From Lentisphaeria bacterium (GTDB taxonomy: Bacteria > Verrucomicrobiota > Lentisphaeria > Victivallales > UBA1829), in assembly GCA_017541665.1 (NCBI GenBank), contig JAFXYP010000065.1, forward strand, positions 39,167 through 103,166: a stretch of DNA of 64,000 bases, read 5' to 3'. The notes beneath the pieces are model-generated. The model was not told the DNA's origin. It saw only the letters and a program-made list of their open reading frames with translations, and made no database searches. Both the position numbers and the translations under genes were made by a program. Numbering within the stretch: the stretch's first letter is position 1; every line of letters starts with the position of its first letter. This document shows positions 58,145 through 61,102 of this stretch, in pieces.

Positions 58145-61102
58145 ATGGATGAGATCATAACAGACACTGTTGAAGTTTCTTCCGGCAGCACCATGACCGG
58201 GCTTCTGGTCCTTCAGGACGGCACCCTGAAGGTCCTGAACGGAGGCCGCGCGCAGAACGTCGGGCTTGCCGACGGAGGAAAAGCCTTTGTCTCCTCCGGC
58301 GGCGGCCTGAGTGTGTGCACCGTCTCCGCCGGCGGCACGCTGGAAATCCTGAGCAGCGGCGTCGCAAGAGACGTCACGGTGGAAAACGGCGGCCTTTACG
58401 TGGTGTCCAGCGGCGGCTCGACCATCCGAAGCTTCATCCAGGGAGGCGGCAAACAGGTCGTTTATGCCGGCGTGAGGGTCATCAGCGCGTTTGTGGAGTC
58501 CGACGGCGCGCTGCATATTTCCTCGGGCGCGCTCGCGTCTTCTCCGGTCATATCGGAGGGCGGCGCGATGTACCAGTGGCAGCGCGGACTGTCGGACCGG
58601 GCACAGGTCTACGGCACGCTTTACGTAAGCGGAACCGCCGCCAATGCGGAAAGCGCCACGGTGTTCGACCACGGCCGGATCGAGATCCAGGCGGACGGAC
58701 ACGGCTTCAAGATCGGAATCAGCTCCGGCGGCGCGCTGGATGTGAAATCCGGCGGGGCAGTCAACTCCGCGCTCGTGTACGCAGGCGGCAGCTTCACGGT
58801 CTCCGCCGGAGCCGTCGGTTTCAATGCGAGAGTCAACGGCGGCACGATGACCCTGGCGGGCGGGATCGCCCCCGAGGCAGAGGCAGGCGAAGACGCCCCC
58901 TCCCCCGTGCCCGGCGGTTCTGCGAGCAATACCACCGTCAATTCCGGCGGCAGCCTGCTTGTTTCCTCGGGAGCCGCCGCGGACAGCGCCACAGTCAATT
59001 CCGGCGGACATCTCTGCATCTCCGCCGGCGGCACCGCCATGGAAGTCAGGGAAAACGGCGGCTATGTTCAGGTTGAAGACGGCGCGGATGTCACGTTCGT
59101 CCCGAACACGATCGACGAGCTTCTGCTGGAAAAATCTTCCGCCACGATCCATTCCGGCACGACCGCAGTCAACGCCACGGTCAACTCCGGCGGCAGGCTC
59201 GAAGTCTTTTCCGGCGGCACGGCGACGATCGTTTTCAATCCATGGCAGGGGCAAATCAGTTCAAGTATTGGGGCGGAGATCGTTTATCTGGAACGGGACG
59301 CCAACGTTTATTGCCGTAAAGACAGTGTCACCAGCAAAGCCGACGTCATGGATTCCCTGGACCTTGCATCAGAGGATAAGGCAATCGTATATTCCGACGG
59401 TATCATCAACGGCGCGACGGTCAATCCCGGCGGCGGAATTGAAATATGTTCCGGCGGCACTGCGAACGCAATCGTAGAGAACGGCGGGTATGTATCTGTT
59501 GGGAATGGTGCGGTAGTATCATTCATTCCCAATTCCATTTCAGGACTGATCGTTTATTCCGCGGCAACGATTCATTCCGGCACGACGGCACACGACATCA
59601 CGGTCAGCTCCGGCGGAGTCATTTATGTCTCCAGTGGCGGGAAACTGACAGGAAAGATGTTTTGTTCGAAAGGGGCGATCGTTTCCGCATACGAGGGGGC
59701 GGTGCTGGATTTCGACCTGACGCACGCGGAGGCGGGAGCCGAAGCGCTCGTGAACGATATTTCGATCATTCAGGGCACGCCTTTGTACACGCTCACGGTG
59801 GACGAGGACCTGGCGCCGGGAAGCTACACCAGCACGCTCGCGGACGGCGCGGGCGGGTTCGACGGCACGATCTCCGTGGTGAATCCCGGCGGCGACGAGC
59901 TCGGCAAGTTCACAGTCGGAGAGACGGTGAAGGTCGGATACGACGATTATACATTGAATTTGACGGATGGCACATTGAGCCTAACGGTCGAAGCGCCCGA
60001 CCTGACGCCGACCAACCTCGTCGGCACGCCGGAGCGGGTGTCATGGGACGCGACCGGCGCGGCGCAGTACATCGTGGAGTATTCGGCCGACAGTTTCGAC
60101 CACGCGATCCGGACGACGACCACGGGATCCGCCATGGACCTGCTGGAACTGCCCGCCGGGACGTACCAGTGGCGCGTGAGGGGAGACGCCAACAGCGATT
60201 GGGCGGTCGGCGAGGCGATCGTGTCCGATACGGAACCCGGCGGTCCGCCGAAGGCCGTCCAGTCCAACGCGGACGGCAGCGACGACATCTTCTTCGCCGT
60301 GCAGGACGGCGCGTGGGAGGACATCTTCTACGCGATGAACGCCGGTTCCCTCAACGACTGGAACGGGACGAAGGAGATCGTTTTCGCCGGGGGCAAGGGA
60401 CATATCCGAAACCTCTTCTTCGGCTCGAATGACGCCAACATCCTGTGCCTGACCGATTCGGACATCGGCGACGCGATCTTCGTGGACGACGAGTTCACGG
60501 GGCAGCCGGAGACCCTCGCGGAACAGCAGGCGCGCCTGGCGAGGATCGACGAAATCCGGGCGGGCGCGGGCGACGACCTCATCGACATGACCAGCAACCG
60601 CATCGAATACACCGGCGACGGCCTGACGATCCGCGGAGGAGACGGCGACGACATCATCTGGGCGAACAAGGGCGACAACATGCTCTTCGGCGACGCCGGG
60701 GACGACCGTCTGGTCGGCGCGTCCGGCGACGACGTCATCGCGGGCGGCACCGGCGACGACTCCATGCACGGAGGAGGCGGCAGCGACACCTTCACGTTCT
60801 GCGACAACTGGGGCTCGGACACGGTGGAGCAGATCGCGGGCGGATTCGTCACACTATGGTTCGTATCCGGCAGCCTGGATAACTGGGACCCGGAGACGCT
60901 GACCTACACGGACGGCGAAAACAGCGTCGCGGTCCGCGGCGTCGGCATCGATGCGGATCTGGTCGTGCTCAAATTCGGCGCGGGGGACACCCCGGAGGAC
61001 GCCGCGAGGTTCGCCGCATTGTCCGGCATGGGTGCGTTCGACGCCTTCTCCTCGCAGAAAGTCTTCGAGGAATCCGCATCCGTCCCCGGCGCCCTCGCCT
61101 GA
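58145..61102 (+). CDS. AIDA-type 19-residue-repeat protein with Fn3-like domain and C-terminal RTX calcium-binding repeats
   Basis: 985 aa with no signal peptide. Residues ~20-520 are strand-loop-strand repeats of period 19 (ATVNSGGSLLVSSGAAADS / ATVNSGGHLCISAGGTAME / VRENGGYVQVEDGADVTFV...). There is an Fn3-like stretch (PTNLVGTPERVSWDATGAAQYIVEYS...GTYQWRVRG). RTX nonapeptides at ~60560-60800 read GAGDDLIDM...GGDGDDIIWANKGDNMLFGDAGDDRLVGASGDDVIAGGTGDDSMHGGGGSDTFTF. Confidence 0.85.
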   Translation: MDEIITDTVEVSSGSTMTGLLVLQDGTLKVLNGGRAQNVGLADGGKAFVSSGGGLSVCTVSAGGTLEILSSGVARDVTVENGGLYVVSSGGSTIRSFIQGGGKQVVYAGVRVISAFVESDGALHISSGALASSPVISEGGAMYQWQRGLSDRAQVYGTLYVSGTAANAESATVFDHGRIEIQADGHGFKIGISSGGALDVKSGGAVNSALVYAGGSFTVSAGAVGFNARVNGGTMTLAGGIAPEAEAGEDAPSPVPGGSASNTTVNSGGSLLVSSGAAADSATVNSGGHLCISAGGTAMEVRENGGYVQVEDGADVTFVPNTIDELLLEKSSATIHSGTTAVNATVNSGGRLEVFSGGTATIVFNPWQGQISSSIGAEIVYLERDANVYCRKDSVTSKADVMDSLDLASEDKAIVYSDGIINGATVNPGGGIEICSGGTANAIVENGGYVSVGNGAVVSFIPNSISGLIVYSAATIHSGTTAHDITVSSGGVIYVSSGGKLTGKMFCSKGAIVSAYEGAVLDFDLTHAEAGAEALVNDISIIQGTPLYTLTVDEDLAPGSYTSTLADGAGGFDGTISVVNPGGDELGKFTVGETVKVGYDDYTLNLTDGTLSLTVEAPDLTPTNLVGTPERVSWDATGAAQYIVEYSADSFDHAIRTTTTGSAMDLLELPAGTYQWRVRGDANSDWAVGEAIVSDTEPGGPPKAVQSNADGSDDIFFAVQDGAWEDIFYAMNAGSLNDWNGTKEIVFAGGKGHIRNLFFGSNDANILCLTDSDIGDAIFVDDEFTGQPETLAEQQARLARIDEIRAGAGDDLIDMTSNRIEYTGDGLTIRGGDGDDIIWANKGDNMLFGDAGDDRLVGASGDDVIAGGTGDDSMHGGGGSDTFTFCDNWGSDTVEQIAGGFVTLWFVSGSLDNWDPETLTYTDGENSVAVRGVGIDADLVVLKFGAGDTPEDAARFAALSGMGAFDAFSSQKVFEESASVPGALA

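Follow-up and report, generated by a model that had tools for sequence, protein, structure and literature searches.

An AIDA-type beta-helix joined to an RTX C-terminus in a Lentisphaeria bacterium: a probable type I secretion cargo and presumed heptosyltransferase substrate

Bacterial autotransporter heptosyltransferases (BAHTs) were defined and named by their autotransporter targets. The cargo of type I secretion systems (T1SSs) must travel unfolded, and Ca2+-driven folding of the beta-roll from the block-V cap is established for CyaA, while secretin-dependent (type II) cargo requires a Sec or Tat signal peptide. In TibA, the heptoses are carried in the loops between the strands (PMC4358343, PMC8151025). 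Ser313 in VIQNSGG is a TibC-modified site, synthetic peptides are also substrates of this enzyme, and its functional residues comprise the catalytic base Asp110, Thr226, Lys230, Arg286, and Trp305, along with the Fe-binding Cys339/342/358/370 (PMC4358343). The beta-helix seems to be already folded, at least in part, when TibC acts on it, and BAHT genes either adjoin their targets or are encoded elsewhere (PMC8151025). Here, we analyzed a stretch of 64,000 nucleotides from a Lentisphaeria bacterium (assembly GCA_017541665.1, contig JAFXYP010000065.1, positions 39,167 to 103,166), hereafter the window, and within it the gene at 58145..61102, whose product joins AIDA-type repeats to a C-terminal RTX module and is called here the AIDA-RTX protein. 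The best explanation for the data, to which we assign a probability of about two in three, is that this is a type I cargo with a beta-helix of the kind found in self-associating autotransporters (SAATs), and that it would be heptosylated in the cytoplasm and then secreted by the type I route. The gene and the segments of its product are as follows:

58145..61102, + strand: AIDA-RTX exoprotein gene, 985 aa, ~100 kDa, isoelectric point (pI) 4.08
58145..59719, + strand: aa 1-525, beta-helix of AIDA/TIGR04415 19-residue strand-loop-strand repeats (from the period, hidden Markov models (HMMs), and the structural model)
59762..60004, + strand: aa 540-620, first beta-sandwich (DSSP, predicted local distance difference test score (pLDDT) of ~85, conserved columns)
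60017..60229, + strand: aa 625-695, Fn3-like beta-sandwich, VSWDxxGAxxYVVEYSTDxFxH...LPAGTYQWRV (Foldseek Fn3 matches)
60242..60544, + strand: aa 700-800, family-specific pre-RTX region (conserved columns, 40% identity with the giant protein of locus L097)
60560..60796, + strand: aa 806-884, RTX block of one isolated and six tandem GGxGxDxUx nonapeptides, as a beta-roll (HMM, period, model)
60797..61099, + strand: aa 885-985 (101 aa), beta-roll cap, one helix, and disordered conserved tail (model, conservation)

The protein is identical to NCBI MBR4254850.1, which is titled 'AIDA repeat-containing protein [Lentisphaeria bacterium]'. Its start is the first ATG past an in-frame stop, so an upstream extension is impossible, and the codon-position GC is uniform over a continuous open reading frame (ORF), as in other genes of the window. 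The N-terminus, MDEIITDTVEVSSGSTMTGLL, contains neither a basic n-region nor a hydrophobic core, and the 12-residue hydropathy over residues 1-40 peaks at 1.28, bearing out an earlier reading of this DNA from its letters alone (the sequence-only reading), in which no signal peptide was seen. The protein is acidic, with 128 D+E versus 45 K+R. In residues 1-520, the best self-similarity offset was 19 (BLOSUM score of 0.07 versus a maximum of -0.31 in 200 shuffles), and both Pfam AIDA PF16168 (E=6.8e-23, six stretches) and NCBIfam TIGR04415 (E=2.5e-41, 139 bits, ten stretches) matched above their curated cut-offs. TIGR04415 describes an O-heptosylation target repeat, known as the recognition substrate of the Aah/TibC enzymes. 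The offset test and the HMMs, thus, confirmed the approximately 500 residues of period-19 sequence reported earlier, but the repeats are not continuous, as a linker at ~236-258 and a non-repeat, low-confidence insertion at ~362-410 interrupt them. The NCBIfam AIDA-I and Ag43 models matched with their passenger regions only (NF033176, AIDA-I, with profile positions 182-405 of 1287), and the autotransporter barrel PF03797 gave no match in this protein even at E<=1.

The central Fn3-like segment proposed in the sequence-only reading is real and lies at ~aa 625-695; the beta-sandwich that precedes it at ~540-620 had gone unmentioned, and has the family consensus ...LDFDL...ALVNDLSxIQGTPxYTLTV...YTLNL...L.TV. 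Neither Big/BIg Pfam families nor a recognizable LapA-type N-terminal retention module were found in the protein, whose first residues already belong to the beta-helix. The consensus of the pre-RTX region is DGxDDxFFA...W.GT...GS.D.N.L.LTD...GDAxFxDDxYT, with D714, F716, F717, W724, W739, G741, T742, D771, D781, and D782 as invariant columns. In residues 800-985, the best period was an offset of 9, and HemolysinCabind PF00353 matched the protein with E=3e-12 and 46.7 bits, against a cut-off of 23. Six tandem nonapeptides occupy residues 831-884 (GGDGDDIIW, ANKGDNMLF, GDAGDDRLV, GASGDDVIA, GGTGDDSMH, and GGGGSDTFT, the second of them counted by eye as a degenerate copy), and a single copy lies at 806, in line with the earlier count of at least five. 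The last 101 residues likewise agree with the tail of ~100 aa described before; they end in GAFDAFSSQKVFEESASVPGALA, where the family consensus is GAFxxFTSxxIFEESGKGILASL, and they are presumed to be the uncleaved T1SS signal. BLASTP and tblastn searches of the window matched the gene itself only, and no paralogues were detected there.

A full-length AlphaFold2 model was built from 46 family sequences (mean pLDDT of 81). Residues 1-525 were modelled as a right-handed beta-helix, the fold that had been expected for residues 1-520, with pLDDT mostly >90 and a disordered insertion at 372-401. The N-terminal model superposed on TibA 4Q1Q, a TibC-glycosylated fragment (TM score of 0.84, root-mean-square deviation (rmsd) of 2.7 Å, 26% identity), and on Ag43 7KOH (E=2.6e-16), these two proteins being the top PDB matches. 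Further along the chain, the model contained the beta-sandwich at 540-620, the Fn3-like one at 625-695, a confident beta-roll with its cap and one helix at 800-960 (pLDDT of 80-92 in the beta-roll), and a disordered stretch at 971-985. Foldseek placed the Fn3-like segment among Fn3 domains with a probability of 1.0 and target-normalised TM scores (TMt) of 0.48-0.66, examples being 3WIH (TMt of 0.66) and 2YRZ (27% identity). A separate model of residues 530-985, from a 53-sequence alignment, had its best matches among type I secreted cargo: the lipases PML (Pseudomonas) and LipA (Serratia), and the RTX domain of CyaA, whose block V (5CXL) gave a TMt of 0.65 and an rmsd of 3.1 Å.

A total of 1145 proteins matched the AIDA-RTX protein at E<=1e-5, and architectures and signal peptides were counted in the best 120 of these. 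The PF16168 and PF00353 pair was present in 119 of them, the exception (P0101) being truncated; neither an autotransporter barrel nor a signal peptide was found in any of the 120, and all begin directly in the repeats. They carry three to eight RTX nonapeptides, mostly five to seven, most end in the conserved tail, and those with named sources all came from Lentisphaeria or Victivallales metagenome-assembled genomes (MAGs). Moreover, metagenomes contained at least 379 related stretches, and the identical 985-aa protein was found on two independent contigs. By these sequence comparisons, the gene belongs to a Lentisphaeria (Victivallales) family that numbers hundreds of members. The sequence-only reading had described a chimera, with an adhesin domain moved onto another export signal; the fused architecture stands, but not as a singular event. 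The source is a MAG and a neighboring giant gene shows a probable frameshift, which would be compatible with an assembly or gene-calling artefact that joined two unrelated genes; given the second contig, the Pfam pair common to the relatives, the metagenome stretches, and the continuous ORF with uniform codon-position GC, this explanation is hardly credible and was ruled out.

Two observations on relatives are recorded here. The partial protein MBO7655346.1, at least 90% identical and in the cluster of P0001, is labelled Kiritimatiellae and the others Lentisphaeria, probably a binning or taxonomy discrepancy between MAGs. In locus L118, a second AIDA-repeat protein of 1486 aa (14992-19452), with no recorded HemolysinCabind match, sits 1.3 kb downstream of a family member, with genes for a reverse transcriptase and an integrase close by; clustering of paralogues is, thus, possible, and some may lack the RTX module.

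The best-conserved part of the family is its last 285-350 residues, with 55-70% identity. This C-module (~285 aa) consists of the pre-RTX region, a six-repeat RTX beta-roll, a cap similar to CyaA block V, and the conserved tail, and it is also borne by proteins with Peptidase_C10, C11, C39_2, CARDB, or CHB_HEX_C domains. In a search of all representatives, the count of 5136 at E<=1e-30 was inflated by generic multi-RTX giants, and only single-stretch, full-length, C-terminal matches were counted as family members; the module formed one full-length stretch at the extreme C-terminus in 61 of the best 150 matches, in carriers of 580-3193 aa, and was always terminal. Judged by sequence, such a distribution is what one would expect of an export module that is C-terminal and portable. 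The same carriers raise the tentative possibility that the beta-helix is less an adhesin than a generic secreted scaffold or stalk for enzymes, of which the AIDA-RTX protein would be a 'bare' version with a different role, for instance as a decoy, as a coat of the S-layer kind, or in storing Ca2+, since paralogues insert the domains listed above between the helix and the C-module, and the LapA-type retention module is absent. However, its nearest structural matches, TibA and Ag43, act as adhesins or self-associate, and spacers of the Fn3-like and beta-sandwich types are characteristic of adhesins at the cell surface. A scaffold role would alter the downstream function only, and not the mechanism of export or glycosylation.

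Next, we considered the export route. The only nearby export components named in the sequence-only reading, one ABC half-transporter and two secretins, were found as described:

38736-40556: ABC half-transporter, generic and TAP/MsbA-like
34833-36629 and 36659-38632, - strand: two tandem secretins near FeoAB (library matches)

The half-transporter was rejected as a T1SS pump. The T1SS models TIGR01846, TIGR03375, and TIGR01842 scored 195-199 bits on it, against cut-offs of 693-726; TAP/MsbA models scored higher, and both a C39-like domain and an adjoining adaptor are absent. Candidate machinery was found in relatives when 1.35 Mb of related sequence was screened by phmmer with E. coli HlyB, HlyD, and TolC as seeds, with matches in loci L097, L110, and L111 only. 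In L097, a 3186-aa protein ends in the C-module, with 40% identity over aa 660-971, including the pre-RTX region, and the gene order is RTX giant, ScmC, PqqD, S24+NTP_transf_5, HlyB-type ABC, and HlyD adaptor. The best model for this ABC protein, of 850 aa and with a C39-like domain, was TIGR01846 (HlyB), with 638 bits, below the cut-off of 725, and its scores on bacteriocin-type models were far lower; the adaptor scored 270 on TIGR01843 (T1SS HlyD), above the cut-off of 209. L119 and L120 repeat this gene order, which there follows a HemolysinCabind-positive protein. Relatives of the adaptor with 65-87% identity are named T1SS HlyD by NCBI in Lentisphaeria, Victivallales, and Victivallaceae MAGs, and the Lentisphaeria ABC and adaptor genes often form stand-alone pairs, an arrangement that suits a single pump shared by many scattered cargo genes. 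The N-terminal domain of the L097-type ABC aligns with the C39-like domain of HlyB; no cysteine occupies what we take, from the alignment, to be the catalytic position, suggesting that the domain is inactive. The Lentisphaeria HlyB-type ABCs (L097, 14088-16640; L116, 7436-9994) have ~850 aa versus 706 aa in E. coli HlyB, and carry an extra N-terminal extension of ~140 aa before the C39-like domain, with no clear similarity to the latter. The type I export put forward in the sequence-only reading is, thus, backed indirectly by the match of the C-terminal model to T1SS cargo and by the module being in cis with HlyB/HlyD genes in L097, but not by any T1SS gene in the window. We infer that the AIDA-RTX protein is exported by a T1SS in its source genome.

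The window also encodes a candidate modifying enzyme, which, along with the glycosyltransferase gene that follows it, had gone unremarked in the sequence-only reading:

5239..6726, + strand: Aah/TibC-family O-heptosyltransferase (BAHT), 495 aa, MBR4254822.1 (TIGR04414, TibC alignment)
6723..7895, + strand: GT2 glycosyltransferase, 390 aa (Pfam Glycos_transf_2, E=2e-22)

The BAHT scored 390 bits on the equivalog model TIGR04414, whose cut-off is 200, aligned with TibC 4RB4 over aa 71-449 (E=1.5e-86), and matched PF21129 and PF01075, i.e., the TibC N-terminal barrel plus the GT-B catalytic domain. Its D164, T281, K285, R350, and W369 correspond to D110, T226, K230, R286, and W305 of TibC, its C403/406/422/434 to the iron-binding C339/342/358/370, and its P364 to P300, the Pro that selects ADP-D,D-heptose. 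The conserved residues indicate that the enzyme is catalytically intact. Orthologues with 53-81% identity were found at 28 loci in ~27 species genomes of Victivallales, Lentisphaeria, and Victivallaceae from the rumen and gut. The GTG start of the GT2 gene overlaps the TGA stop of the BAHT gene by 4 nt (GTGA), a GT2 gene lies downstream of the BAHT in 16 of the 28 loci, and the two are fused into a single ORF in L018, L022, L026, and L030, which is at least 769 aa long in L018 and reaches ~1000 aa in L026 and L030, where extra sequence lies between the parts. Such a Rosetta-stone pattern speaks for the two enzymes acting in succession on a common substrate, and the GT2 is, hence, a candidate for a second glycosylation step.

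On the acceptor side, residues 1-525 contain eight [NS]SGG serine motifs versus 0.3 expected, a 25-fold enrichment, and the structural model places all eight in the inter-strand loops of the beta-helix, making these serines candidate O-heptosylation sites. The suggestion that the protein is possibly heptosylated is, therefore, much strengthened by the BAHT encoded in the window and by these predicted loop motifs, and the BAHT is presumed to be the modifying enzyme of the AIDA-RTX beta-helix.

A third group of genes, also unremarked before, lies directly upstream of the AIDA-RTX gene:

41310..56103, + strand: giant T/G/A/S-rich protein in two overlapping ORFs, 41310-43619 (769 aa) and 43396-56103 (4235 aa)
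56280..57170, + strand: ScmC-like, HPr-kinase-like P-loop protein, 296 aa (PF27840; weak TIGR04249 match)
57167..57427, + strand: PqqD-like protein with the peptide-recognition-element fold, 86 aa (PF05402, E=5.6e-18)
57434..58045, + strand: S24/S26-like peptidase, 203 aa (TIGR02228, 28 bits, below the cut-off)

The last three occupy the stretch between the giant gene and the AIDA-RTX gene. The S24-like peptidase has the motifs GNSM...HRV...GDNN, resembles signal peptidase I of the archaeal/endoplasmic reticulum type, and shares 29% identity with the N-terminal part of the S24+NTP_transf_5 protein of L097. Homologues of this accessory set (S24 with or without NTP_transf_5) were found inside the T1SS operons of L097, L119, and L120, directly upstream of BAHT(-GT2) genes in L016, L017, L018, and L022, and adjoining family or giant proteins in L081, L099, L104, and the window. 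No other comparative evidence speaks as strongly for a single pathway of cargo, glycosyltransferases, and T1SS as the recurrence of these genes in all three settings. Since the same genes stand in T1SS operons and beside BAHT genes elsewhere, the ScmC-like, PqqD-like, and S24-like proteins may be accessory factors in cargo recognition, holding, or processing; neither radical-SAM enzymes nor a small precursor peptide were seen with these sets. As for the giant protein, it gave no Pfam or NCBIfam match and has no signal peptide and no RTX C-module. Its ORFs overlap in different frames, and proteins of 4911 and 4930 aa fall in the same 90% cluster, as does the 769-aa piece, suggesting that this is probably one gene of ~4930 aa split by a frameshift. 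In L104 and L038, homologous giants precede ScmC genes, AIDA-RTX genes, or both.

We propose that the AIDA-RTX protein would be synthesized in the cytoplasm without a signal peptide, and that the BAHT would O-heptosylate the [NS]SGG loop serines of the beta-helix from ADP-heptose, with the Pro at the position of TibC 300 predicting the D,D isomer. The GT2 could next add to the heptose. The uncleaved C-terminal signal would engage the HlyB-type ABC with its putatively inactive C39-like domain, the HlyD adaptor, and the outer-membrane channel, all of them encoded elsewhere in the genome. The chain would exit C-terminus first, and extracellular Ca2+ would fold the RTX beta-roll from the cap, ratcheting export. 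The beta-helix would fold outside the cell and act as an adhesin or aggregation factor, and in paralogues it would be the stalk for protease or glycan-binding inserts.

Several observations weigh against this proposal. Regarding export, Pfam scans of the window ORFs gave no match to the HlyD or outer-membrane-factor families, in line with the earlier statement that no HlyD-like adaptor or TolC-like protein is present there. No T1SS genes were found next to any of the ~75 core family loci, five contexts of homologues gave none either, and no TolC-like gene was detected in the 1.35 Mb of related sequence, where the distant E. coli seed gave low sensitivity; no T1SS was placed in the source MAG via NCBI accession blocks, the named adaptors coming from other MAGs. 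In the models, residues 697-790 are badly predicted (pLDDT of 44-60 in the pre-RTX region) and remained of low confidence in the separate C-terminal one. The adhesin function suggested for the protein is drawn by analogy from its fold only. These absences would suit a protein that is not type I cargo, in which the RTX block would be a structural Ca2+-binding domain and which would either leave by another route, e.g., the nearby secretins, or stay intracellular. The two window secretins lie ~20 kb upstream of the AIDA-RTX gene, and in L004 a PilM-x-x-secretin-secretin cluster is immediately followed, in the same direction, by the gene of the family member P0004. However, the secretin route was ruled out by the signal peptide that type II cargo needs and that no family member has, and the window secretins are on the opposite strand, beside FeoAB; tandem secretins may be a feature of the Lentisphaeria clade, and a link to the AIDA-RTX family is unlikely. 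Moreover, the C-module is always at the extreme C-terminus with a conserved tail, structurally resembles T1SS cargo, and occurs in cis with HlyB/HlyD-type genes in L097, with the same order in L119 and L120. We, therefore, regard a non-type-I protein as quite improbable.

On the side of glycosylation, the BAHT gene is 51 kb from the AIDA-RTX gene, in a neighborhood of conserved housekeeping genes (KamA, QPRT, and YmdB), and an AIDA-RTX gene lies within 10 kb at only two of the 28 BAHT loci. The thumb-tip residues Phe265, Val266, and Phe368 that make the TibC dodecamer contacts are replaced by D328, H330, and I432, and the oligomeric state of the window enzyme may, thus, differ from the TibC dodecamer. 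Furthermore, the apparent action of TibC on a folded helix (PMC8151025) and the unfolded state of T1SS cargo together mean that an unfolding or holding step would be needed, a puzzle that also exists for Sec-dependent autotransporters (PMC8151025). These points would agree with a type I cargo that is not glycosylated by the window BAHT, the enzyme serving other substrates instead, such as genuine autotransporters elsewhere in the genome or the giant protein, and sharing the window with the AIDA-RTX gene by coincidence. Against this, the TIGR04415 repeats, the target of this enzyme family, are clearly scored in the protein, acceptor-type loops are enriched, none of the 120 best AIDA-repeat relatives carries a barrel, and the ScmC/PqqD genes connect BAHT operons with family proteins and T1SS operons. 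In addition, TibC modifies synthetic peptides (PMC4358343), and BAHTs are often distant from their targets (PMC8151025). An enzyme unrelated to the AIDA-RTX protein is, in consequence, unlikely, and heptosylation by the window BAHT followed by type I secretion remains our preferred explanation.

The need for a holding step bears on a more far-reaching idea, which we put forward as doubtful though conceivable, namely that beta-helical type I cargo in Lentisphaeria may be matured and delivered by a cytoplasmic pathway dedicated to it. The PqqD-like recognition element, together with the ScmC-like and S24/NTP_transf_5 proteins, would dock onto part of the AIDA-RTX or giant proteins, and this complex would keep the cargo export-competent, coupling the addition of the BAHT heptose and the GT2 sugar to the hand-over to the HlyB-type ABC. 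In the type V field, where the helix is glycosylated in a folded or partly folded state, 'unidentified, specific chaperones' have been named as one possibility for keeping or making it export-competent (PMC8151025), and the ScmC/PqqD/S24 genes are concrete, testable candidates for this role. If true, such a pathway would mean substrate recognition in the style of ribosomally synthesized and post-translationally modified peptides applied to secreted proteins of 100-500 kDa, and a BAHT family independent of type V secretion.

The AIDA-RTX and BAHT proteins are already named by domain in public annotation. In the literature, including that on Lentisphaerae secretion, we found no earlier description of AIDA with RTX, of AIDA-repeat T1SS cargo, of BAHT with T1SS, or of BAHT substrates outside type V, BAHT-GT2 fusions, or ScmC/PqqD linkage; the 'AidA family' of PMC5646257 is another classification, of VCBS/cadherin-containing proteins, and not AIDA-I repeats. 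The significance of the locus lies in a BAHT with conserved active-site residues in a clade where every AIDA-repeat protein seems to be type I cargo. If the proposal is true, the heptosylation system follows the beta-helix fold and not the secretion pathway, and the BAHT family may not be tied to type V. The AIDA-RTX family is abundant in rumen and gut Victivallales and, with its protease and glycan-binding inserts, is probably a major part of their exoproteome, and the well-conserved 285-aa C-module could serve as an export tag. Elsewhere in the window, positions 30001-32000 form a low-GC island (0.514 versus ~0.60-0.69 in the flanks) that may be foreign DNA and contains a 378-aa ORF (30334-31470) with no Pfam match, and on the + strand a run of DUF58, BatA-like, and VWA genes (24421-29974) resembles the Bacteroides aerotolerance (Bat) operon.

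When compared with AIDA-I, TibA, and Ag43, the E. coli type Va proteins, the AIDA-RTX protein has in common with them the 19-residue PF16168/TIGR04415 repeats, the right-handed beta-helix, the outward-facing serine loops, and a TibC/Aah-type heptosyltransferase in the genome. Unlike these SAATs, it lacks the Sec signal peptide, the autochaperone/linker, and the 12-stranded barrel, and has a beta-sandwich, an Fn3 domain, and the RTX module instead; the enzyme gene is not adjacent, and the hosts are anaerobes of the Planctomycetes-Verrucomicrobia-Chlamydiae group rather than Proteobacteria. Because both the signal peptide and the barrel are absent from its sequence, it is not a member of the autotransporter family.

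With the RTX cargo of HlyB/HlyD/TolC systems (CyaA, PML, LipA, and the serralysins), it shares the GGxGxDxUx beta-roll, the block-V-like cap, acidity, absence of a signal peptide, and a putative uncleaved tail ending in acidic and then hydrophobic residues, and HlyB-type ABC and HlyD adaptor genes occur in the clade, in cis with the C-module in L097. It differs from them in that its passenger is an AIDA-type beta-helix and not a toxin, lipase, or protease, and in its ~100-aa pre-RTX region, an unusually conserved C-terminus, and T1SS genes that are mostly unlinked. The giant RTX adhesins (LapA, MpIBP, SiiE, and FrhA) would be similar in their C-terminal, RTX-signalled T1SS export and presumed surface or adhesive role, but in those adhesins the stalk is a long array of Ig-like (BIg) beta-sandwich repeats and the N-terminal retention module carries a LapG site, whereas the stalk is a beta-helix here; as the Ig-like stalk and the retention module are missing from its sequence, the AIDA-RTX protein is not a LapA-type adhesin.

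The accessory genes are of the same kinds (ScmC, PqqD, S24, NTP_transf_5, and C39-ABC) as those of the SynChlorMet/HPr-kinase peptide-modification cassettes, as found in lasso-peptide-like clusters, but the Lentisphaeria sets flank proteins of 1000-5000 aa, and their ABC and adaptor score as HlyB/HlyD and not as bacteriocin exporters. Finally, the window BAHT agrees with Aah, TibC, and BimC in passing the equivalog model and in keeping the catalytic Asp, the four sugar- and phosphate-binding residues, and the four Fe cysteines; in contrast to these enzymes, its presumptive substrates are not autotransporters, ~65 aa are added at its N-terminus, the TibC thumb-tip residues are missing from it, and it is translationally coupled or fused to a GT2 and, in some genomes, preceded by ScmC/PqqD-like genes.

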